From the NCBI GenBank assembly GCA_020630175.1, contig JAHDBW010000003.1:11982-75981 (forward strand): 64,000 bases of DNA. Reading direction: 5' to 3'. The notes under the pieces are model-generated. The model had not been told where the DNA came from, did not search any database, and was given only the letters and a program-made list of their open reading frames with translations. Shown one piece after another: positions 20,189 through 59,730 of this stretch; position 1 is the stretch's first letter; each line of letters starts with the position of its first letter. This DNA comes from Anaerolineales bacterium. Its GTDB lineage: Bacteria; Chloroflexota; Anaerolineae; Anaerolineales; UBA6668. Position numbers and translations under genes: made by a program.

Positions 20189-21898
20189 CTACAGGTACCC
20201 TTCATCGAAATCACTTTTAGCACTTTCATAGGCAGTTTGCTGGTCGTCTTCATTTAGATACCCAACCGCACGATAAAGCGTTTCGTCATAGTCGCGGGTT
20301 TTGATCACAACTGGCATCGGCACTGCATGGCCTAATATCAATGCTTGCTGTTGCGTATCTAGCCGGGCTAACACTTCACGTAGTGAGCTTGCGCCACTAA
20401 CCCCAGAGAACACTGCGCGAATATCAGCTTCGTTATCAAGCAGGGCGGTGACGCGCGTGCCGATCTGGCTCATGACTTCATCATCGATTCCGCTTGGGCG
20501 CTGATCTACGACTAACAAAGTGACGTTGTACTTGCGTAGCTCACGGGCAATCGTGCCAAAAATTGTGTGTTTTGCAATTTCTGGATCAAGAAACTTGTGC
20601 GCTTCTTCGATCACAATCATCAGCGGTTTGGGTTGCGCGCCTTTTTGGGTTGTCGCCTTGTTTTTCGCCTCAACATAACGCTGGTGAACGCGGCGCGTGA
20701 GGTAATTTGCAACCAGCATATAGGCGGGTAGATTATCCCCATGCTTGCCAAATTCGAGCACGACACTGGTGCCATTGGTGAGCTTGTCGAAGATTTCGGT
20801 AACAACATTGTTGCTACTTTTTTCAACGAGAAAATCCATGCGCCGGAATAGTTCAAACTTCCGTTGGATAGCACTCAACGTGCCTTTGACCAACATGCCT
20901 TCATCAATAATCGTGTCGATTTCGTCACTGCCTTTTTCATCAAGTAACTTGGCGACCCAGTCTTTGCCTAATTTGCGGCGTAAATAATAGAGTGCGCCCG
21001 TTTGCACGTCGGACAGGTTCAGCATGCTGCTGAGCATTTCTACATCGGCGGGCTCAATATCTGAATATTGAATTTGGAATTCACCTGAAATTGTGTTGTT
21101 CCGCGCGCGCGATGTTTCTGCATCCAAGGTGTATAGGCTAGGGCGATTGGACGCAAGGATCTGGGTTAGCCCTTTCCACGTTTTGCCACGCTCATTCGTG
21201 ATTTCCCAGCCATAATCGCTGTGCATGTCAAAAATCAGACAAGAGGCTTTTTGCTTTGCAATCACGGCGGCTAACAAGGTCCGGGTGATAAAGGATTTCC
21301 CGGTCCCGCTCTTGCCAAACACGCCTGAAGACCGTTCTACAAAGCGATCTAGATCAAGGTTGACCTTGACGCCATCCATATCCAGCGGTGACCCGATGTA
21401 AAAGTGGTCGTCATCTTCTTCACCAAAGACTTGGTTTACGTCCTCTTCAGTGGCTTTGAAGACCGGTGAAAAGTGCGCTGGAATGGTCTTGTTAGGACGC
21501 GGTTCTTTGGCGTCTTCTTCTAACATCAACATTGGTGAGATGTTGGCGCGACCATAGGCGACGGTTGCGCGATAAATGTCCGCTAAGAATGGGCTGCTTG
21601 GGTCTGGTGGCGTTTGCTCAATGGCTGGATTGGTGTTATCTAAGATGATGTCCGTCACAATTGAGAAGAACTTCCGCTTCGTAAGCCCTTGCGCCACAAC
21701 GTAACGCCCAACGGCCATGTCTTCAATGGTTTGGCCAACGGCAGAACTGCTGTCTAGTTTGACCGTAATGCCCTTAGAAAGCGAACCGCCAACCACAACG
21801 CCGAGGCGTACGCGCGCTTCCTCACTGGCAGTGTCATTTTCTAATCCGATGGGGCGATTGTCTTCATCGCGTGGTAAAAAATCGTCTAAGTCGCTCAT
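20189..21898 (-). CDS. herA: HerA/FtsK-superfamily ATPase (DUF87-type)
   Basis: N-terminal barrel-like segment, Walker A GKSGTGKS, Walker B LMIVIEEAH, and LLVVDQRPS. Confidence 0.8.
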   Translation of the reverse strand: MSDLDDFLPRDEDNRPIGLENDTASEEARVRLGVVVGGSLSKGITVKLDSSSAVGQTIEDMAVGRYVVAQGLTKRKFFSIVTDIILDNTNPAIEQTPPDPSSPFLADIYRATVAYGRANISPMLMLEEDAKEPRPNKTIPAHFSPVFKATEEDVNQVFGEEDDDHFYIGSPLDMDGVKVNLDLDRFVERSSGVFGKSGTGKSFITRTLLAAVIAKQKASCLIFDMHSDYGWEITNERGKTWKGLTQILASNRPSLYTLDAETSRARNNTISGEFQIQYSDIEPADVEMLSSMLNLSDVQTGALYYLRRKLGKDWVAKLLDEKGSDEIDTIIDEGMLVKGTLSAIQRKFELFRRMDFLVEKSSNNVVTEIFDKLTNGTSVVLEFGKHGDNLPAYMLVANYLTRRVHQRYVEAKNKATTQKGAQPKPLMIVIEEAHKFLDPEIAKHTIFGTIARELRKYNVTLLVVDQRPSGIDDEVMSQIGTRVTALLDNEADIRAVFSGVSGASSLREVLARLDTQQQALILGHAVPMPVVIKTRDYDETLYRAVGYLNEDDQQTAYESAKSDFDEGYL

Positions 21899-22482
21899 AG
21901 TAAGCTCTCCAAGCGGCGTAAGATGGTGTCCAGACGTTGGAAGTCGTTCCCCATTAACTGGGCTAAATATTGCCCAGCGGTGCGTAGATATTGCGCCCGA
22001 TTTGGGTGGGCTTGCGCGGCTTGTTCTAGGACGCGCACGGTTAGTTCATCTGTGGGGGCGTCACTGGCTTGGAAGATCAACCTTAGAAAGTTGAAATCAC
22101 TTGTGAGCGCGGCAATTTCGGTATGTTCGCACAGCGCAATGTGGCTCAGCGTGAGCGGCGGTTGCGGTGGCAAGCCCGTGCGTACTTTTGTGCCTTGCAT
22201 ATAGCCAAGCGTTAGCACGCTTACCTCAATCGGCATTTGACGCTGCCGCTGATCTTGAATGATTTCAATCGGCGTGTCTTGATTGCCAACAATCTGCCGC
22301 ACAAGGTCATCATCTTCTAAAACAATGTTATAGATGGTGCCAATGGCGTGCGCAGTGCCGTTTTGAATAGGAACTTTTACAAATGCACCAAAATGGGGCA
22401 TCTCTGGTTTAGGAATAGCACAGCCAAAGGTGAAGCTCTGAATAGAGCTATGTAATAGCTGCCCGATTTGAATAGGCGACAT
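21895..22482 (-). CDS. 195-aa protein of unknown family, N-terminus HAS-barrel-like
   Basis: ATGA overlap with herA and a 5-nt gap after nurA. The N-terminal ~60 aa follow the same hydrophobic/Gly pattern as the HerA N-terminus. Confidence 0.6.
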   Translation of the reverse strand: MSPIQIGQLLHSSIQSFTFGCAIPKPEMPHFGAFVKVPIQNGTAHAIGTIYNIVLEDDDLVRQIVGNQDTPIEIIQDQRQRQMPIEVSVLTLGYMQGTKVRTGLPPQPPLTLSHIALCEHTEIAALTSDFNFLRLIFQASDAPTDELTVRVLEQAAQAHPNRAQYLRTAGQYLAQLMGNDFQRLDTILRRLESLL

Positions 22483-22487
22483 GATAG

Positions 22488-23717
22488 TTATCTACGTTTT
22501 TTGCGGCGTTTGGGTCTGGTAGACCCTTTCAGTTTTAGTTTGGCAGACTTGTGCGGCACGATGTTCTTCTTTAACAGTTCGCGGGTCAGCATATTTTCTA
22601 CGACCGTGCGATCTTGCGTTTGAATGACAGCTTCACCATCGGCGCGTGCCAGTGCATATGGGTAGTGCACGCCAGCGGTGTATTGTGATTGGCTGACCAA
22701 GGTTGCATGTAACAGGGCGATTTGCTCTGGATTGGTCGCAATCCACTCTGGTATTTCTACGCGCACCACGACTGGTGTTTCAGCAACCAAGCTGACATTC
22801 AAATAGAAAATGTGAATGCTATGCGTTTGATTGGCTCTTTCTTGTAAGGTGCGCTTGCGATAGGGCTCATTCCAGCCCGATGTTGTTTGGAAAATGGCGG
22901 ATCGCTCCCCCGGTCCCAAGTGTTTTTGAAACACGGCTCGATCAGAGACACCACCAAAGGGCGGCTCTTTTGCTTCAATTGCAACGTCTAATGCGTCTAT
23001 TTCAAAGCTAGACAGCCACAGCAGATTCAAAACTGGACTGCCGCCAGGTTGGTCTACATAGCCTGCCAACGCGCAGTCGCAATCGGCTAAGCGGTCCATT
23101 GCTTTTAGGTGTCGGTTATAAAGATAGCCAGTTTCACGCGCCGAAATGCCTTCCCCTTGCGTGCGGAGTGCGATTGGCCCGTCGATCAAGCTGACAACTG
23201 GGTGTGGCGAGGCTGTTCCCGTGTCAAGGCTGAGTTCGGTCAGGCCTTCCATTTCTGCCACAGTGCGACGTAAGTTGACCAGCGGCACCGTCACCATACG
23301 TCCGTCTACCAATACATCTTCATTTGATGCGGCAAGCACGGTATTGCGCACAACGGTTGGGGCTTCACCAGAGCCAATCTGGATAATAAAAGCGCCAATG
23401 TTTAACAAGTAGTATTGCAATGCAGAATGTTTATCGGGATAGATTTGAGACCCATCAACAGCGATCACCGTTGCTCTAGGCGTTTGTGCAGGGCAAGGAA
23501 AGGTTGCGGCAACATTTTCACCAGTCGGCTTCGCGCCACTCCATTCTCTGCTGGCGGCCGCGATTTCAGCTTTTGCATGCAAATCTTGCATAGCGCTAGC
23601 GGCGTTGAGTTGAATCAGCGCGGCTGGAATCAATTTGCTGTGTTGCGTAATACGATCTGCAATCGCATTACCAGCGTCTTGAATTTGGTGGGTGATGGCT
23701 TGGATGTTTATACTCAT
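22488..23717 (-). CDS. nurA: NurA-domain nuclease with polybasic C-terminal tail
   Basis: IAVDGSQ, SLIDGPIAL, GYVDQPGGS and YPYALARADGEAV motifs in NurA order. The C-terminus is KLKLKGSTRPKRRKKRR. Confidence 0.75.
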   Translation of the reverse strand: MSINIQAITHQIQDAGNAIADRITQHSKLIPAALIQLNAASAMQDLHAKAEIAAASREWSGAKPTGENVAATFPCPAQTPRATVIAVDGSQIYPDKHSALQYYLLNIGAFIIQIGSGEAPTVVRNTVLAASNEDVLVDGRMVTVPLVNLRRTVAEMEGLTELSLDTGTASPHPVVSLIDGPIALRTQGEGISARETGYLYNRHLKAMDRLADCDCALAGYVDQPGGSPVLNLLWLSSFEIDALDVAIEAKEPPFGGVSDRAVFQKHLGPGERSAIFQTTSGWNEPYRKRTLQERANQTHSIHIFYLNVSLVAETPVVVRVEIPEWIATNPEQIALLHATLVSQSQYTAGVHYPYALARADGEAVIQTQDRTVVENMLTRELLKKNIVPHKSAKLKLKGSTRPKRRKKRR

Positions 23718-23785
23718 GTCTCAGAACACGCGTTCGTATTATAGGCGAAATTTCATAATCTGGATAGGCGGTGAGTACTCCGCGT

Positions 23786-23803
23786 TTATAACAAGGTTAT
23801 AAC
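23786..23803. promoter_or_regulatory. operator-like site 1: TTATAAC-aagg-TTATAAC
   Basis: Lies between divergent -10 boxes: TATAAT at 23825-23830 (+) and TATAAT (reverse complement of 23738-23743) for nurA. One of three copies in the window. Confidence 0.55.
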
Positions 23804-23824
23804 TATGCATGCCTTGTAAATCAC

Positions 23825-24037
23825 TATAATACCCGCGCATCATTTAGTTGTACCCATGATGAAGTAGTGTTCGGCCTTGGCCGAGAGAGGATTCTTTTCG
23901 GAATGACACAACCGATATGGTTCAACAGCAGCAGCTTATAAATGCCCTTGGATGAGGGAAGTTGCCGGACAGTTGCCATCGATGTTTTGGTCTTAGCTTG
24001 ACCGCTAGAGCGCATTGTCTTTTGACAATGCGTTTTT
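23825..24037 (+). ncRNA. candidate small transcription unit (sRNA or 12-codon sORF mRNA)
   Basis: Perfect TATAAT 21 nt after site 1. Then a CUUG-loop hairpin plus GAGAGAGGAT box, ATG 23903 to TAA 23941, ending at a 9-bp-stem terminator with T5. Confidence 0.35.
24011..24037 (+). terminator. intrinsic terminator
   Basis: CGCATTGTC-TTTT-GACAATGCG followed by TTTTT. No A-run upstream, so it is plus-strand specific. Confidence 0.7.
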
Positions 24038-24073
24038 AGATTCTGATTCTGTTGATGGTTGGCGGAGGTGCTT

Positions 24074-24259
24074 ATGTTTTATAACAAACTTATAACAGCA
24101 ATGCTAAAGATCTCTCTCTATAATCAATCACGACACACTCACAGGGGCTTTCCAGCTATTTTTTGTTTAGATGCGGCTTTAAACGCCGAGAGAGGATCTG
24201 AATTGATGCGGCGGAAAGACTTCCTAACTATCCGATTTGATCACAACAATCTTTTGTAA
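24074..24259 (+). CDS. candidate 61-aa ORF (uncertain)
   Basis: Perfect SD GGAGGTG 3 nt before ATG 24074. However, the ORF contains operator site 2 and a TATAAT box and has no recognisable family. Confidence 0.25.
   Translation: MFYNKLITAMLKISLYNQSRHTHRGFPAIFCLDAALNAERGSELMRRKDFLTIRFDHNNLL
24079..24096. promoter_or_regulatory. operator-like site 2: TTATAAC-aaac-TTATAAC
   Basis: Followed after 22 nt by a perfect TATAAT (24119-24124). Same architecture as site 1. Confidence 0.55.
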
Positions 24260-24609
24260 TCACAAAATGTAAATATGCGTTACGACCTATTACAGCGGGT
24301 TTATGTTTCTAGCAACAACAGAGAGAGGCGTTGTTATGAATATTAGATCAGATGTAACCGTTGTAACACGAAGATCGATAGTGTGGTTTATGTTTCCTGC
24401 CAATATATAAGTGGCATAGAGAGGGGAATATAAAACTGCGCAGCTTTCAATAGCGATAGCTTAGAAACGCTCTAAACCAGAGAGGCTATTGGGCAGTGGG
24501 CTGAATGCTACGATCATTCACATATCAATCAGATTGTTATTACTAAGGCGCGGCGTGATCATCTGTGCTTGAGTATCCAGTTGTATTTTAAGAGAACTCA
24601 AAGGTATTT

Positions 24610-25923
24610 ATGAAATTGCTAACTAAATTGAAGCTACAGTTAAGTGTGCTCCTGGTTGTACTAGTGGCAATCTTTGCTGCACCGGTGCTTGCTGCGCCTG
24701 CGGCACAAGACTCGGTTAAGGCAACAACAGAGTATGTTGTGCAAAGTGGAGACAATCTATCCCACCTTGGACGGCGGTTTGGGATGCACCCAAGCGTTAT
24801 CATCGGCGCTAACCCGCAGTTGGTCTTTCGTCCAAACGTGTTGATTCCTGGCGAAACGCTCATCATTCCCGGTGAACATTTTGTAGGGACTGACTCCGTT
24901 GCAGACGTGCTCGCAAGCGATCCGCGCTTGTCTACGTTCCTTATTGCGGCACGCACTGCAGAATTGTTAGACGATTTGGATTATGTGGGGCGATACACGG
25001 TTTTTGTTCCAACAAATGCTGCATTTCAACAGCTTTCATCAAGTGCACGTGGTGACCTGTTGAATAACTTGGCATTTATGAACACGATTGTGCATTACCA
25101 CATTGTGCCAGAGCGTTACACAATGGCAGAGCTTGCTAATCAAAGTGCCGTGGCGTCTTATTCAGGCGCAGGCATTAGCGTGACCGGATCTGGGTCAGCA
25201 TTAGCGGTCAATGGTGTTCCCATCAGTGCGGCAAGCAGTATCGAAACGTCTAACGGCGTTGTCTACCTGCTCCCGGCACTGTTACCATTGCCAGATGATG
25301 CCCAACTCACTACTGACGCAACAACAATTGACTTTGCTTCAACATTTGATGTCAACACAGCGGGCAATGCTACGGCTGTCCAAGCTGAAATTGCTGACGT
25401 TGCTGAGGCATTAGAAGAGGGTGCGGAAACAGATACAGAAGTCCTTGGGGTTGCGCTGCCAACACCTGCCAGCACGACTAACCAAGCGCTGACAGTGGCT
25501 ACAGCCAGCTTGTCTGGGAGTAACCTACGGGTTGCACCAAATTCTGTTGTACTGAGCTGTGGTTCCTTATCAGTTTCATTAAGCGATGTCTTACAGTCAC
25601 TTAGTGGGCCGCTTAGCATAAATACCCTAGATGTTGCATATGTGCATTACCATAATGGATTTAGCCGTGGCAGTACGGAGGCTTGTGTCACCTTCACTGC
25701 TGAGGTTGCGGGGGGTAAAGCGCCACATCGAATTTTGATCAACAACATTCCGATTGTGCCGCGCAATGCCCACCTGAATTCACGGGTCGGGGGCGAATTT
25801 GGTGACATTGAATTTGACGTATTGGCAGACTGCAATCAAGCTTACTCATTTGCACTTACAGTAGAAAGTGGAGATGGTCAGCAAGCCACGCGTGTCTTCA
25901 ACCAGTTCATTCCTTGCCCATAG
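24610..25923 (+). CDS. secreted LysM + fasciclin (FAS1) domain protein
   Basis: Signal peptide; LysM (YVVQSGDNLSHLGRRFG); FAS1 motifs (TVFVPTNAAFQQL, NGVVYLL); Cys-containing C-terminal domain. Confidence 0.8.
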   Translation: MKLLTKLKLQLSVLLVVLVAIFAAPVLAAPAAQDSVKATTEYVVQSGDNLSHLGRRFGMHPSVIIGANPQLVFRPNVLIPGETLIIPGEHFVGTDSVADVLASDPRLSTFLIAARTAELLDDLDYVGRYTVFVPTNAAFQQLSSSARGDLLNNLAFMNTIVHYHIVPERYTMAELANQSAVASYSGAGISVTGSGSALAVNGVPISAASSIETSNGVVYLLPALLPLPDDAQLTTDATTIDFASTFDVNTAGNATAVQAEIADVAEALEEGAETDTEVLGVALPTPASTTNQALTVATASLSGSNLRVAPNSVVLSCGSLSVSLSDVLQSLSGPLSINTLDVAYVHYHNGFSRGSTEACVTFTAEVAGGKAPHRILINNIPIVPRNAHLNSRVGGEFGDIEFDVLADCNQAYSFALTVESGDGQQATRVFNQFIPCP

Positions 25924-25978
25924 CGTGTAAGCAACACTCTTTGTGCAGTTGAAAGACCGTACAATTGAATATCGATCT

Positions 25979-26010
25979 AAAAAGCGCACCTAGCTGGGTG
26001 CGCTTTTTTG
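25979..26010 (+). terminator. intrinsic terminator
   Basis: GCGCACC-TAGCTG-GGTGCGC followed by TTTTTT. Confidence 0.7.
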
Positions 26011-28459: not shown

Positions 28460-28807
28460 TTAACTGGCCAATTGGCGTGGGTGATGTAAACCGCTCATTG
28501 CGTCAACGTCAGCAGCAAGTTTTTCCTGCTGTTTAGGGCTAAGCGTGTGCCATTTGCCAACGATTTGGCGTAATGTTGGATCTGGACGTAAAAGCCCTAA
28601 TACATCATAGACTTCAGGCCCTAAGGTTTCTGCAAGATGGTCAACATGCCGACCAGCTGGCACAACCTTGCCATTCATCCAACGGCTTAGATTTGCCCCG
28701 CTTGTGTTGAGGTAATCAGCAAAGTGGCTCGCGGATCTGGCATGATCACGGTGTTGTTGCCACTCTTCATATTTCTCTTGTAACCAGCGACTAAATGATA
28801 TGGACAT
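28460..28807 (-). CDS. XRE-family helix-turn-helix regulator, probably leaderless
   Basis: HTH FADYLNTSGANLSRWMNGKVVP. ATG 28805-28807 lies 6 nt after a TACAAT -10 box (reverse complement of 28814-28819). The track ORF starts at GTG 28822. Confidence 0.7.
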   Translation of the reverse strand: MSISFSRWLQEKYEEWQQHRDHARSASHFADYLNTSGANLSRWMNGKVVPAGRHVDHLAETLGPEVYDVLGLLRPDPTLRQIVGKWHTLSPKQQEKLAADVDAMSGLHHPRQLAS

Positions 28808-28856
28808 GGCGCGATTGTACACGAGTGTTTTGCCGTTGTTGACCCACTTTTAAGGC

Positions 28857-28874
28857 TTATAACGGACTTATAAC
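28857..28874. promoter_or_regulatory. operator-like site 3: TTATAAC-ggac-TTATAAC
   Basis: Lies 37 nt upstream of the TACAAT -10 box of the XRE gene. Identical half-sites and 11-bp period as sites 1 and 2. Confidence 0.55.
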
Positions 28875-29014
28875 GCAACGTGTAACGCCATACAAACGCG
28901 TTCTTTCTTAAAGAACTCATTTATCGATTTTACCTTTAGAAACTGTTAGAAAAACCATAACTTTTCTAATTCTTCACACAACATTTTTGTACCGCATTTT
29001 AGGCAACAAATTGT

Positions 29015-44816: not shown

Positions 44817-46319
44817 ATGAACACAACGAAAACGCCCGTTTTTGAACTCAAAAACGTCTCCAAAATTTACACAACCGGCGCGGGTGACTTTGCGGCGCTT
44901 GATGATGTGTCCTTCAATATTTATCCCGGTGAATTTCTAGGCATTGTAGGGCGCTCTGGGGCGGGTAAATCGACCCTGCTCAACATGCTGTCTGGCGTGA
45001 GCAAGCTGTCTGCTGGGCAGGTGCTTTACAACCAATCTGATGGTACGGCGCTTTCTATTCATGACCTCAATCAAAATCAGTTAGCCACGTGGCGCGGTGA
45101 AAACATTGGCATTGTGTATCAATCGTTTGAACTGCTGCCGATGTTAGATCTGGTCAATAACGTGATGCTGCCGCAAGACTTTTTAGGCGTTTACAACGCC
45201 AAGACCAGCCCCGCGCACGCTTTAGATCTACTCACCCAAGTTGAAATTGGCGAGCATGCTTACAAGATCCCGGCGCATGTGTCTGGCGGACAGAAACAAC
45301 GCGTGGCGATTGCGCGTTCCCTGACCAATGATCCGGCAGTGATCATTGCCGATGAGCCAACGGGTAGCTTAGATAGCAAAACAAAAGAAACCATCTTCAA
45401 GATTTTTGAAGGATTAGTTGCCAACGGTAAAACCGTGGTGATGGTGACGCATGATCAAGGTCTGAAAGGGCGGTTTGATCGGACCTTGCAAATTTCTGAT
45501 GGACGCGTCACTGGTGATGCTGTTTCGTTTGCGGGCGCAAGCGTAGCCAAAGTAGACGAGAAAGGCCCAGATGAGTCGGCACTAGCCACTGCTGAAGATA
45601 CAAATTCTGCCAGTGAAAAAAGCGCCATCAGTCTTGAAAATGTCACTAAGACTTACGTTGGACCTGCCGGTGAATTTACGGCGCTCAAAAACATCAATCT
45701 CGATTTTCACTACGGTGAATTTGTTTCAATAGTGGGGCAATCCGGCAGTGGCAAGTCTACGTTGCTCAATATGCTGACCGGCATTGATCATCCAACGAGC
45801 GGCAATGTCACGATCAATGACCTGGCCGTGTATGGCATGACCGAAAGCCAGCGAGCGCTATGGCGCGGGCGTAATCTAGGCATTGTGTTTCAGTTCTTCC
45901 AACTGCTGCCAATGCTCACGCTGGTTGAAAACATCATGTTGCCGATGGATTACTGCAACACGTACAAGCCGCGTGAACGGCGCGCCAAAGCCATGGAACT
46001 GCTTGACTTAGTGGGGCTGAAAGATTTCGCTCGTAAATTGCCCTCAGCCGTCTCGACTGGGCAACAGCAAAGTGCTGCCATTGCGCGGGCACTTGCTAAT
46101 GATCCGCCCATCATCGTCGCCGATGAACCAACTGGAAACTTAGACACCCGCGCGGCAAACACAATCATCCAATTGTTCCGGCGCTTGGCGCAACAGGGCA
46201 AAACAATTCTGATTGTGACGCATGACCCCGGCCTAACGCGCTTTACCGACCGCACGATTACTTTGGCCGATGGCGAAGTGGTCAACCGTGAACTAGCGCC
46301 TGAGCTTTCGGTGGCCTAG
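44817..46319 (+). CDS. tandem (fused) MacB-type ABC ATPase, second signature degenerate
   Basis: NBD1: GRSGAGKST / VSGGQKQR / IIADEPT. Then a 40-aa linker. NBD2: GQSGSGKST / VSTGQQQS / IVADEPT. Confidence 0.85.
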   Translation: MNTTKTPVFELKNVSKIYTTGAGDFAALDDVSFNIYPGEFLGIVGRSGAGKSTLLNMLSGVSKLSAGQVLYNQSDGTALSIHDLNQNQLATWRGENIGIVYQSFELLPMLDLVNNVMLPQDFLGVYNAKTSPAHALDLLTQVEIGEHAYKIPAHVSGGQKQRVAIARSLTNDPAVIIADEPTGSLDSKTKETIFKIFEGLVANGKTVVMVTHDQGLKGRFDRTLQISDGRVTGDAVSFAGASVAKVDEKGPDESALATAEDTNSASEKSAISLENVTKTYVGPAGEFTALKNINLDFHYGEFVSIVGQSGSGKSTLLNMLTGIDHPTSGNVTINDLAVYGMTESQRALWRGRNLGIVFQFFQLLPMLTLVENIMLPMDYCNTYKPRERRAKAMELLDLVGLKDFARKLPSAVSTGQQQSAAIARALANDPPIIVADEPTGNLDTRAANTIIQLFRRLAQQGKTILIVTHDPGLTRFTDRTITLADGEVVNRELAPELSVA

Positions 46320-51915: not shown

Positions 51916-51935
51916 AATTGGGTAGAATTTGTTGC

Positions 51936-52511
51936 ATGAAAGAACTTGTCCAAAAAATTCAGGAGCATGGTGTCTATCTTGGCAACGGTATCCTAAAAGT
52001 TGATAGTTTTCTAAACCATCAAATTGACGCGGGGCTGATGCACCGTGGCGGGGTTGAATTCGCTAATCGGTTTGCTGCAACCAAGCCAGATGTGATTTTG
52101 ACAGCTGAAATTTCGGGGATTGTGCCAGCCACAATGACTGCGCTGCAAATGCAATTGCCGATTGTGTTTGCACGTAAACATCGCCCAATCACAATGCCCA
52201 AAGACGTCTATAGTAGCTCTGCACCGTCGCATACAAAAGGCAAAATCGTAGAGCTGATGGTTTCTCCTGAATACTTGAAAGCCGGACAGCGCGTCCTAAT
52301 TATTGACGACTTCCTCGCCACCGGAAAGACGCTGCAAGGCCTTGTCCAAATTGTGGGTCAAGCGCAAGCGGAACTGGTCGGCATTGGGGCAGTCATTGAG
52401 AAAAGCTTTGAAGGCGGCCGTGCGTTACTTTCCACGCTGGGCGTGCAAATTGAAAGCTTAGCGATTATTGATGCATTGTCAGATGACGGCATTGAGGTCC
52501 GGGGTGGCTAA
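51936..52511 (+). CDS. xpt: xanthine phosphoribosyltransferase
   Basis: [13 protein letters not shown] and [15 protein letters not shown] motif, collinear with Bacillus Xpt. Start moved to ATG 51936. Confidence 0.9.
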
Positions 52512-52512
52512 T

Positions 52513-54054
52513 ATGGATACAGTTGTTATTTTAGACTTTGGGTCGCAGTATACCCAGCTGATTGTGCGCCGGGTTCGCGAAGCCAATGTCTATTCTGAAT
52601 TACACCCGTTTGATGTTGCTCCAGCCACAATCGCAGCCCTAAACCCTAAAGCCTTTATTATTTCTGGCGGGCCAAGCAGCGTTTATGAAGCAGATGCACC
52701 AACCCTGCCGGATTACATCTTGGCGGCTGGTGTGCCTGTACTTGGCATTTGCTATGGTATGCAACTGCTGGCGCATACGCTGGGCGGCGAAGTGTCTGCC
52801 TCTAATGAAAGAGAATATGGCCGCGCCGCAATTGGCGTGCCGCAACCGGGAACGCTCTTGGATGACGCGGTTCCAACCACATTCAACGCTTGGATGAGCC
52901 ACGGTGACAAAGTTACCCAAGTGCCAGCGGGGTTTCAGGTCTCGGCCACGAGTGCCAACTGTCCAATAGCCGCGATGGAAGATACGCAGCGCAACCTTTA
53001 TGCGGTGCAATTTCACCCAGAAGTCAATCACACTGCCTATGGCCGTAATGTAATTGAGAACTTTCTCAGCGTGGCAGATATTAAGCGTGATTGGAACGCG
53101 AGCTTCATGATTGAGCAAGCTGTTGCGGAAATCAAAGCTAAGGTTGGCGCTAAACGCGTACTGGCTGCTGTGTCTGGTGGCGTGGATTCAACGGTGGCAA
53201 CGGCCTTGGTGAGCAAAGCCATTGGTGATCAACTGACGTGCTTTTATGTCGATACCGGCCTGATGCGCGCTAATGAAACTGAGCAGGTGATTGAGACATT
53301 CACGAAAAATATCGCTGCCGAATTCGAGCCGATCAATGCGGTTGAAGATTTCTTGGGCGCAATTGGCAACGAAACCGATCCCGAAGCAAAGCGCAAAATT
53401 ATTGGTAAGACGTTTATCGATATTTTTGAGCGCGAAGCCCGCCGTCTTGGTAAAGATGCGAGCTTTTTAGTGCAAGGCACGATTTACCCGGACGTTGTGG
53501 AAAGCAGCGGCAAAGGGCGTGAAAAAGCAGCGAAAATCAAAACGCACCATAACGTTGGCGGTTTGCCTGACGATCTGAATTTTGATCTGCTAGAACCGTT
53601 GCGCTTTATGTTCAAAGACGAAGTGCGTAAAGTTGGCGAAGCACTAGGGTTGCCAGACGAAATGGTCTGGCGGCAGCCGTTTCCGGGGCCGGGCTTAGGG
53701 ATCCGCTGCCTAGGTGAAATTACTTGGGAACGCCTTGAAACACTCCGCGCTGCCGATAAAATCCTGCGCGATGAACTGCGCGCTGAAGGCATGTTGCGTG
53801 GCGATACCGCGCAAGCCTTTGCCGTGTTACTCCCTGTAAAATCAGTTGGCGTAATGGGCGATCAGCGGACGTATGAAGAAGTGATTGCACTGCGTGCTGT
53901 TACCACCGATGACTTTATGACGGCTGATTGGGCGCACCTGCCTTATGAATTGTTGGCAAAGATTAGCAGTCGTATTTGTAACGAAGTGCGCGGGGTCAAT
54001 CGGGTGGTGTACGATATCACCAGCAAGCCACCGGGTACAATCGAGTGGGAATAA
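52513..54054 (+). CDS. guaA: GMP synthase (glutamine-hydrolysing)
   Basis: GATase ([19 protein letters not shown]), ATP-PPase loop SGGVDSTV, C-terminal ...KPPGTIEWE. Start at ATG 52513. Confidence 0.95.
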
Positions 54055-59091: not shown

Positions 59092-59730
59092 ATGTCGCTA
59101 AAATTAGTGCTTGCATCCCAATCTCCACGCCGTAAAGACTTATTAGCCTTTACTGGCCTTGACTTCGCTATCAAAATTGCCGCGATTGATGAATCCGCGC
59201 TTGAGAACGAAGACCCCGTTGCCTATGTGCGTCGGTTAGCCGCTGCCAAAGCGCAAGCCGTTGCAGACACATTGGACGCAGATGCCGTTGTGCTTGGCTC
59301 TGACACAATCGTGGTCTATGACAATATGCTGCTTGGTAAGCCAGCCGATGCTGCTGATGCCAAGCGCATGCTTTCTATGATCAGAGGCCAGACGCATCAG
59401 GTCGTGACGGCGTTTGCATTCGTCACAAAGTCTGAAGCATTGCTAGTCGCGCATGAATCAGCAGATCTTGTGCTGCGCGATTTTACTGACGCAGAAATTG
59501 ACGCGTACATCGCTTCTGGTGATCCGATGGATAAGGCCGGTGCTTATGCAATTCAAAATCAGGAATTCAAACCAGTTGCAACGCTTAACGGCTGTTTTTC
59601 TGGCGTGATGGGCCTGCCGCTTTGTCAGGTGACGCTAGCCTTGCGCGATCTTGGTTTTGATCCACAAGACAACTTCTCTCTAACCGATTTGCAAGAATGC
59701 GGTTGCAGTAATTTCGCAACTGATGTTTAG
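59092..59730 (+). CDS. maf: Maf-family nucleoside triphosphate pyrophosphatase
   Basis: LASQSPRRKDLL, GSDTIV, KAGAYAIQ motifs. Confidence 0.9.
   Translation: MSLKLVLASQSPRRKDLLAFTGLDFAIKIAAIDESALENEDPVAYVRRLAAAKAQAVADTLDADAVVLGSDTIVVYDNMLLGKPADAADAKRMLSMIRGQTHQVVTAFAFVTKSEALLVAHESADLVLRDFTDAEIDAYIASGDPMDKAGAYAIQNQEFKPVATLNGCFSGVMGLPLCQVTLALRDLGFDPQDNFSLTDLQECGCSNFATDV

Follow-up and report, generated by a model that had tools for sequence, protein, structure and literature searches.

In the 64,000-nt stretch of Anaerolineales DNA analysed here (the window), the region at about 23837-24037 on the plus strand looks like a gene for a structured, non-coding small RNA of ~200 nt. This RNA may share a binding partner with the mRNA leader of the neighbouring LysM-fasciclin gene, through the purine element AGAGAGG and a ~65-nt hairpin motif, and we give this reading as a whole about even chances. 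The region lies in the 892-bp spacer between nurA and the LysM-fasciclin gene, which contains two tandem plus-strand units rather than one: the candidate small RNA (unit 1) and the leader (unit 2). A sequence-only reading of this DNA had proposed an independent small plus-strand gene with its own control site, -10 box and terminator. This proposal stands, as the position, the signals and the structure are kept in both close relatives, and every sequence element listed in that reading is present where it was placed. No protein open reading frame (ORF) accounts for unit 1, and its product is probably a new, lineage-restricted small RNA, paralogous to the neighbouring leader. The features of unit 1 and the two flanking genes are as follows.

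22488-23717, minus strand: nurA, flanking gene
23786-23803, plus strand: site 1, TTATAAC-N4-TTATAAC (TTATAACAAGGTTATAAC), an exact copy, centred at about -42.5 from the predicted start
23825-23830, plus strand: -10 box TATAAT of unit 1 (TATACT in both relatives)
23837-23843, plus strand: GCATCAT, predicted 5' end of the RNA, invariant in three genomes
23871-23884, plus strand: hairpin TCGGC-CTTG-GCCGA, directly 5' of AGAGAGG
23884-23890, plus strand: AGAGAGG, purine element, invariant in three genomes, consensus CGAGAGAGG
23903 (ATG) to 23941 (TAA), plus strand: 12-codon ORF, MTQPIWFNSSSL, with ATG and spacing kept, apparently not selected as coding
23917-23979, plus strand: hairpin motif copy A, with the outer helix 23917-23920 with 23976-23979, P1 23929-23937 with 23959-23967, and P2 23945-23947 with 23956-23958
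23981-23985, plus strand: GATGT, 3' half of the closing helix, invariant, pairing with GCAUCAU as (AU)GAUGU
23989-24003, plus strand: small hairpin GGUC...GACC, stem conserved in three genomes
24007-24037, plus strand: intrinsic terminator, hairpin and U5, with the stem CGCATTGTC/GACAATGCG at 24011-24032 and T5 at 24033-24037
24610-25923, plus strand: LysM-fasciclin gene, Pfam families LysM and Fasciclin, N-terminus signal-peptide-like

Conservation and boundaries of the small unit

The comparison covers three metagenome-assembled genomes (MAGs), namely the window genome and the two Anaerolineales MAGs with the closest NurA proteins (L001 and L002, ~72-75% identity to the window NurA). Both relatives have the same gene order as the window and a spacer of ~900 bp. 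As a neutral benchmark we used nurA third-codon positions within identical residues; L001 and L002 share 0.50 of these, and the window shares 0.40-0.46 with each relative. For the L001-L002 pair, identity is 0.84-0.96 in the body of unit 1, 0.64 in its terminator and 0.20 in the 24 nt after the terminator. Because the identity of the body is far above the neutral benchmark, unit 1 appears to be under purifying selection, which ends at the terminator. The conserved blocks in the three-way alignment are the TTATAAC site, the -10 box, GCATCAT, CGAGAGAGG, a ~65-nt block, GATGT, and the GGTC/GACC hairpin. The sequence-only reading had considered that the region might not be conserved at all in relatives with the same nurA-herA operon; it is conserved in both close ones.

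The unit has a narrow distribution. Among 5.8 billion proteins searched, no NurA homologue with more than 45% identity was found beyond those of the window genome, L001 and L002, and 1 homologue of the LysM-fasciclin protein was found. In the next NurA relative (L027, 44% identity), the spacer upstream of nurA is 123 bp and is without the unit. Since the unit is missing there and its relatives are only two MAGs, sequence comparison suggests that it belongs to a narrow lineage and is not a general companion of nurA-herA.

The 3' boundary is set by the terminator, whose hairpin has a stem of 13-15 bp. In all three genomes this position holds a G+C-rich hairpin and, after it, a T-run, and no two genomes have the same stem sequence; the strong intrinsic terminator of the sequence-only reading is thereby confirmed as a conserved feature. 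On the minus strand, no T-run follows the hairpin in any of the three genomes. We note that a generic promoter and terminator scan of unit 1 called neither. The promoter was not called because the -35 hexamer is missing: no recognisable -35 hexamer is found at the promoter of unit 1 or of unit 2. The terminator, as we read it, was missed since the scan lengthens the stem at the expense of the T-run, so that the tail keeps too few T.

At the other end, transcription would start ~7 nt after the -10 box (~23837), from a promoter without a -35 hexamer. The two ends of the unit 1 RNA would then be closed by the helix GCAUCAU/AUGAUGU, which folds in all three RNAs with the 5' strand of the terminator left free, and the enclosed RNA would carry one single-stranded AGAGAGG and the covarying hairpin. 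In the window, CATCAT (23838-23843) also pairs with ATGATG (23856-23861); this local hairpin is present as described earlier, but it is specific to the window genome. As for the CUUG-tetraloop hairpin, a hairpin is kept in the relatives (CGGC-UUAG-GUCG and CGG-GUUUA-CCG at that place), but the loop is not conserved.

The folding models display AGAGAGG single-stranded. Five of the six copies of this element in the 64 kb are on the plus strand of the 892-bp spacer, while 2.2 copies are expected in the whole window. A clear Shine-Dalgarno sequence is seen in few window genes (all start regions were viewed), and the cluster of purine elements in the spacer therefore stands out. Displayed repeatedly in this way, AGAGAGG looks like a site to be bound by a protein or by the 3' end of 16S rRNA.

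The LysM-fasciclin leader and the shared hairpin motif

The second unit of the spacer leads into the LysM-fasciclin gene and contains the following features.

24079-24609, plus strand: unit 2, the ~480-nt leader of the LysM-fasciclin gene, apparent paralogue of unit 1
24079-24096, plus strand: site 2, TTATAAC-N4-TTATAAC
24119-24124, plus strand: -10 box TATAAT of unit 2
24185-24197, plus strand: 13-mer GCCGAGAGAGGAT, shared with unit 1
24189, 24322, 24418 and 24479, plus strand: four copies of AGAGAGG
24437-24510, plus strand: hairpin motif copy B, located by the covariance model

Because the two units have the same site, -10 box, AGAGAGG and hairpin motif, unit 1 appears from its sequence to be a truncated paralogue of the LysM-fasciclin leader. 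In unit 2, elements 2 and 4 present AGAGAGG as a 7-nt bulge that separates an inner hairpin from an outer helix, and element 3 presents it in a hairpin loop. The stems flanking these copies differ between genomes while the pairing is kept; for element 3, for example, the three genomes have AACAAC/GUUGUU, GACG/CGUC and CAUGAC/GUGAUG. Element 5 reads AAACCAGAGAGGCU in the window, and L001 has GGAGAAG there, without AGAGAGG. No terminator was seen between unit 2 and the LysM-fasciclin ORF. Two pairings near the start of this ORF are predicted, UUGCUU with the AAGG ribosome-binding region and GGCAGU with codons 3-4 (AUUGCU); both are invariant and so lie beyond a covariation check.

The ~65-nt motif occurs in two copies per genome, one in unit 1 (copy A) and one at the end of the unit 2 leader (copy B). 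The covariance analysis suggested by the sequence-only reading was run on the alignment of these six copies from the three genomes, with the consensus fold calculated by RNAalifold. The motif folds into an outer helix, an invariant core, a 9-bp P1, an asymmetric internal loop and a short P2 with a variable loop. In the core, the 5' strand reads UCAAUAG and the 3' strand GGCAGU(GG), and five copies have UCAAUAG / GGCAGUGG. In the consensus structure 95% of the cells are paired, and compensatory changes on both sides are seen in 8 of the 17 pairs. These values are not reached in any of 500 column shuffles, and sliding the partners by 1-3 columns lowers the pairing to 36-58%. The frequent G-U pairs make the modelled structure specific to the plus strand. 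An equally good score is obtained with a variant fold that pairs part of the core as an imperfect helix (C-G, A.G, A-U, U.G), and in window copy A two substitutions turn this core segment into four Watson-Crick pairs. With the pairing known, the tandem repeat AGTTGCC-ggac-AGTTGCC (23960-23977) pointed out by the sequence-only reading, while present, is merely the 3' strands of P1 and the outer helix; the relatives read AGTTACT-GGGC-AGTGGAC.

We also observed that the invariant CAAUAGC resembles the 5' strand of P1 (GAUAGC, GGUAAC) at 23921-23937, at 24446-24462 and in the other copies. The 3' strand of P1 can pair with CAAUAGC in a second register, at 7 of 7 positions in window copy B. The two registers could constitute a register switch, judging from the sequence.

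When a covariance model is made from the six copies, its matches at 70-87 bits are these six places alone, two in each genome, with window copy A at 70 bits. All other matches stay at or below 23 bits, whether in the window, in the 27 loci linked to NurA or in the 140 viral and metagenome loci selected by pattern. A strict DNA pattern scan for the motif gave 0 metagenome matches. A looser pattern gave 20 viral and 120 metagenome matches, all at or below 22 bits on the motif model, and we judged them to be chance. An extra match at 45716-45762 (20.7 bits, E = 0.012) is truncated and lies inside an ORF at 44817-46319; it was likewise set aside.

Known RNA families were searched with Rfam 15, which gave no match at the gathering score in the window, L001 or L002, and no match at E <= 5 over 22000-26000. 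At E <= 10 over 23780-24620 (841 nt), only chance matches to eukaryotic snoRNA and lncRNA families were found, at 12-20 bits. The models of Csr/Rsm and of the PyrR binding site, which we take to be RF00515, gave no match even at E <= 10 on the same 841 nt. The two units are thus a candidate for a new RNA family. Its kind is familiar, a small RNA accompanied by a cis-regulatory leader, and the sequences so far place it in three MAGs.

The motif can be compared with riboswitch aptamers, among which the NMT1/xanthine and nhaA-I classes consist of a long hairpin with a conserved internal loop. Like these, it has covarying helices that flank an invariant internal region, and one copy is located in a long 5' leader. 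Unlike these, it matches no Rfam class and has no expression platform that we could find, the downstream gene hints at no ligand, and the second copy is located in a terminated stand-alone unit.

The predicted promoter site and its candidate regulator

The control site of unit 1 has two further exact copies in the window, site 2 at the start of unit 2 and site 3 beside a gene for a small DNA-binding protein.

28463-28807, minus strand: gene of a 115-residue, probable XRE-family helix-turn-helix protein, candidate factor for the three sites
28857-28874, plus strand: site 3, TTATAAC-N4-TTATAAC, ~50 nt upstream of the XRE-family gene, kept in L001 and L002

Shuffled sequences give an expectation of 0.00 for the exact TTATAAC-N4-TTATAAC, which occurs in 3 plus-strand copies in the window, and all three sites are kept in both relatives. 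The half-sites form mostly a direct repeat with a period of 11 bp. The gap between site and -10 box is 21-22 nt at both RNA units in all three genomes. This geometry would suit an activator that replaces the -35 contact, and we infer that the activation is by the XRE-family protein.

The 115-residue protein is 86% identical to each of its counterparts in the two relatives, which is above NurA. It has ~880 relatives by HMMER, and 22 of 25 sampled match Pfam HTH_3, while the protein itself falls below the Pfam cut-off (E <= 0.01). A profile from its relatives finds solved XRE-type structures weakly (best 3op9, E = 9e-6). From these matches we take it to be an XRE-family DNA-binding protein. Because it is of this family and its gene is located beside site 3, with conservation in three genomes, it should be the obvious candidate to bind all three sites. 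The same site precedes both RNA units and the XRE gene, and for this reason the protein would likely act as an activator at TTATAAC-N4-TTATAAC, placed much as lambda cI is at PRM, and would probably regulate its own gene too.

XRE-family activation beside the -35 region is known from lambda cI at PRM and from the controller C proteins of restriction-modification systems. The predicted circuit resembles these in its small XRE-type protein, in the two-part site near -42 at promoters without a -35 hexamer, and in the further copy of the site at the gene of the regulator. It differs in that the half-sites are mostly a direct repeat with the 11-bp period, two of the three targets are RNA units, and the binding and the direction of the regulation are predictions.

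Several observations concern the surroundings of site 3. Its centre is ~58 nt upstream of the ATG of the XRE-family gene, a geometry unlike that at the two RNA units. The gene itself looks leaderless, with TACAAT (28814-28819) 6 nt before the ATG. A third plus-strand unit downstream of site 3 was considered and rejected, as no -10 box is found there at the 21-22 nt spacing. Two invariant blocks, TCTTAAAGAACTCA (28906-28919) and GTTAGAAAA (28945-28953), are kept in the three genomes; the spacer in which they lie runs from site 3 to the 3' end of a convergent 988-residue ORF.

On the other side of unit 1, nurA has its own TATAAT (23738-23743, minus strand). Between this box and the ATG, within 30 nt of the start codon, there is a palindrome, AGAACACGCGTTCG (23723-23736), which is conserved as GAACGTGTGTTC in L001 and L002. 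The palindrome fits what we take to be the GAAC-N4-GTTC LexA (Cheo) box of Gram-positive bacteria and Dehalococcoides; a literature search for a LexA box in Chloroflexi yielded nothing usable. On this sequence feature, the nurA-orf195-herA operon is probably SOS-controlled. The distance from site 1 to the nurA promoter differs by ~45 nt between genomes, and site 1 was rejected as a regulator of nurA for this variation. As nurA has its own TATAAT and LexA-type palindrome and site 1 is at a variable distance from it, a long minus-strand transcript is not needed, and the suggestion that unit 1 is antisense to a transcript reading toward nurA is not supported.

Proposed function and competing explanations

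If unit 1 is transcribed as predicted, the small RNA and the LysM-fasciclin leader would most likely bind the same partner, each through its AGAGAGG and hairpin core. Either a protein, such as an Hfq-like one that recognises AG repeats, or a small ligand could be this partner. The small RNA, induced along with the leader, would be in competition with it for this partner, or would buffer the partner, and would so tune the expression of the surface protein. A more specific version, in which the hairpin with UCAAUAG/GGCAGUGG is a new ligand or protein sensor in the leader and in a decoy RNA under one XRE-type activator, is a tentative suggestion that we find possible but would not favour. If this version were true, two RNAs would compete for one effector, and it would be a first worked case of small-RNA regulation in Chloroflexota.

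Small RNAs that titrate the regulator of a leader include EutX and Rli55, with the ANTAR protein EutV, in Enterococcus and Listeria, and CsrB and RsmZ, with CsrA. In these systems, as here, a terminated small RNA adjoins the regulated gene or is co-regulated with it, the elements are repeated in the mRNA leader, and the promoter has a dedicated upstream transcription factor site. In contrast to EutX/Rli55, the elements here are AGAGAGG and the ~65-nt hairpin (UCAAUAG/GGCAGUGG), with no ANTAR dual hairpins. In contrast to CsrB/RsmZ, there are no GGA loops, and the small RNA has one copy of each element. The competition between two RNAs is, in the present case, predicted from the shared elements, and Rfam gives no match.

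For the AGAGAGG element, two protein-binding sequences offer close parallels. The sequence (AG)3A, selected by systematic evolution of ligands by exponential enrichment (SELEX), is a crystallised ligand of the distal face of Bacillus subtilis Hfq (PMC3287200), and the consensus of the PyrR binding loop is ARUCCAGAGAGGYU (PMC7430163). Unit 1 carries the sequence traits of Hfq-binding RNAs of the Gram-positive type, a single-stranded (AG)n with n >= 3 and a U-rich 3' end. Like Hfq-dependent small RNAs, it has a single-stranded, seven-base AG-repeat element and a terminator with a U-tail. Unlike Hfq ligands, it has an invariant final GG, which the AG-repeat rule does not require, and it has no target pairing that we could find; when it was folded with the 5' regions of genes, all that came out were long duplexes without meaning.

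Several points weigh against the small RNA reading. The start site, the size of the RNA and transcription itself are deduced from signals in the DNA. The whole-RNA fold of window unit 1 is only modestly better than those of shuffled sequences (z = -1.76). Unit 1 has only one AGAGAGG, a low number for a sponge, and the core of window copy A has diverged to UCAACAG / GACAGUUG, against UCAAUAG / GGCAGUGG. No hfq, csrA or pyrR was found by tblastn in the 64-kb window, which says little on the whole genome, and no hfq was found in the other loci retrieved either; the binding partners of AGAGAGG and of the motif are candidates only. The comparison includes 3 genomes and 6 motif copies, with few independent events, and L001 and L002 are mutually related. 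In addition, an ATG is located 12-13 nt after AGAGAGG in all three genomes, and the element could, by its sequence, serve as a ribosome-binding site.

The main rival to the small RNA reading is an attenuator, and the weaker ones are a small protein, a decaying duplicate and a system of the PyrR or CsrA type. In the first of these, which we consider unlikely but worth serious attention, unit 1 would be a cis-acting attenuator (riboswitch-like or protein-controlled), the first of two tandem leaders, with the hairpin motif as sensor of a ligand or protein and conditional read-through into unit 2 and the LysM-fasciclin gene. Conserved structure followed by a terminator, on the same strand and upstream of the next gene, is the classic layout for this, the same motif is located in a true leader, and the second register of P1 could offer an alternative pairing. 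However, folding of the three RNAs revealed no conserved antiterminator or alternative pairing for unit 1: upstream pairing of the 5' strand of the terminator gains 2.5-3.6 kcal/mol, with partners that differ per genome. The U-runs after the terminator are long in all three genomes. Unit 2, moreover, has its own site and -10 box, which are the best-conserved parts of the spacer (0.84-0.92 identity), and the 40 nt between the units are not conserved (0.20 identity). Since no conserved antiterminator was found, we read the terminator, on these folding models, as constitutive and the product as a discrete RNA of ~200 nt.

Alternatively, unit 1 may encode a small protein or a regulatory leader peptide from the ATG at 23903, with AGAGAGG as the ribosome-binding site, which appears quite improbable to us. 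The constant distance between AGAGAGG and the ATG agrees with this, as does the absence of indels in the 21 nt from the ATG to TTC. AGAGAGG is also complementary, with one G-U pair, to CCUUUCU, which we presume to be the usual 3' tail of 16S rRNA. Against this, the ORF differs in length, with 12 codons in the window but 25 in L001 and L002, and at residues 2-6 the window sequence is unrelated to theirs. L001 and L002 differ at 4 nt of the ORF, all 4 of which change an amino acid, with no synonymous-only change, and 23 of 25 third positions (92%) are identical between them, against 50% in nurA. What is conserved as 'FNS' in the ORF is the 5' core of the RNA motif, and copy B contains the nucleotides of 'FNS(G/S)(N/S)L' again; there, in the window, no start codon is available and a stop lies five codons upstream. 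The residues encoded across P1 change with its compensatory substitutions. The conserved third positions, the non-synonymous differences and the recurring FNS suggest that selection acts on the RNA and not on a peptide, and the short ORF, offered by the sequence-only reading as a possible product, would be incidental to the selected function, though it may be translated as a side effect or as a regulatory event.

A 63-residue ORF on the minus strand (23824-24015) was also rejected. It has 51 and 73 residues in the relatives, with a different start, and its similarity to these is confined to the stretches of conserved DNA; the plus strand is also favoured by the G-U pairs and the terminator. 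In the three genomes, no conserved ORF was found on either strand of unit 1.

It is also hardly probable that unit 1 is a decaying tandem duplicate of the promoter and leader, without function and either silent or a source of transcriptional noise. The modules it has in common with unit 2 and the diverged core of window copy A would agree with decay, and in such a small lineage conservation spans a limited evolutionary time. However, L001 and L002 are 84-96% identical here against 50% at neutral sites, the helices of copy A are kept by compensatory changes, and the terminator is rebuilt with a different sequence in each genome.

Finally, a PyrR-type attenuation or CsrA-type binding site, with the region as part of a known system, is the least probable explanation of the AGAGAGG elements: although window element 5 (AAACCAGAGAGGCU) and the others (CGAGAGAGG) share the AGAGAGG core of the PyrR loop and are followed by a terminator, and repeated purine motifs in loops recall CsrB and RsmZ, the covariance models have no match, the neighbours are not pyrimidine genes, no antiterminator is conserved, the elements are bulges between two helices where the PyrR type is presumably a hairpin, element 5 is missing in L001, and the base after GAGAGG varies (GGC, GGG, GGA), so that a CsrA-type GGA is not conserved.

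To our knowledge, almost nothing is known of the regulatory RNAs of Chloroflexota, and Anaerolineales are mostly uncultured. If transcribed as predicted, the small RNA would complete a compact circuit made up of one small regulator of the XRE type, its three identical candidate sites, the long structured leader and the paralogue of that leader, and would add a new structured RNA family. Such a circuit would also be a natural case for studying how one partner is shared by a leader and the small RNA that arose from it. Its value is limited by the size of the family, which comes from only three metagenome-assembled genomes.

Some observations concern other genes of the window. The genes xpt (xanthine phosphoribosyltransferase) and guaA overlap (51918-54054) and form an apparent operon; no purine riboswitch or other Rfam family was found upstream of them at the gathering threshold. 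TATAAT is located 8-30 nt before the start codon in several genes, for example those of the ORFs starting at 59092 and 37414 and nurA, which suggests, at the level of sequence, that leaderless or short-leader mRNAs are frequent in the window. After nurA, the gene order continues with an ORF of 195 residues and then herA. This ORF (21895-22482 in the window, 9312-9908 in L027) has 195-198 residues, is without a Pfam match, and may be a conserved third component of the nurA-herA operon.

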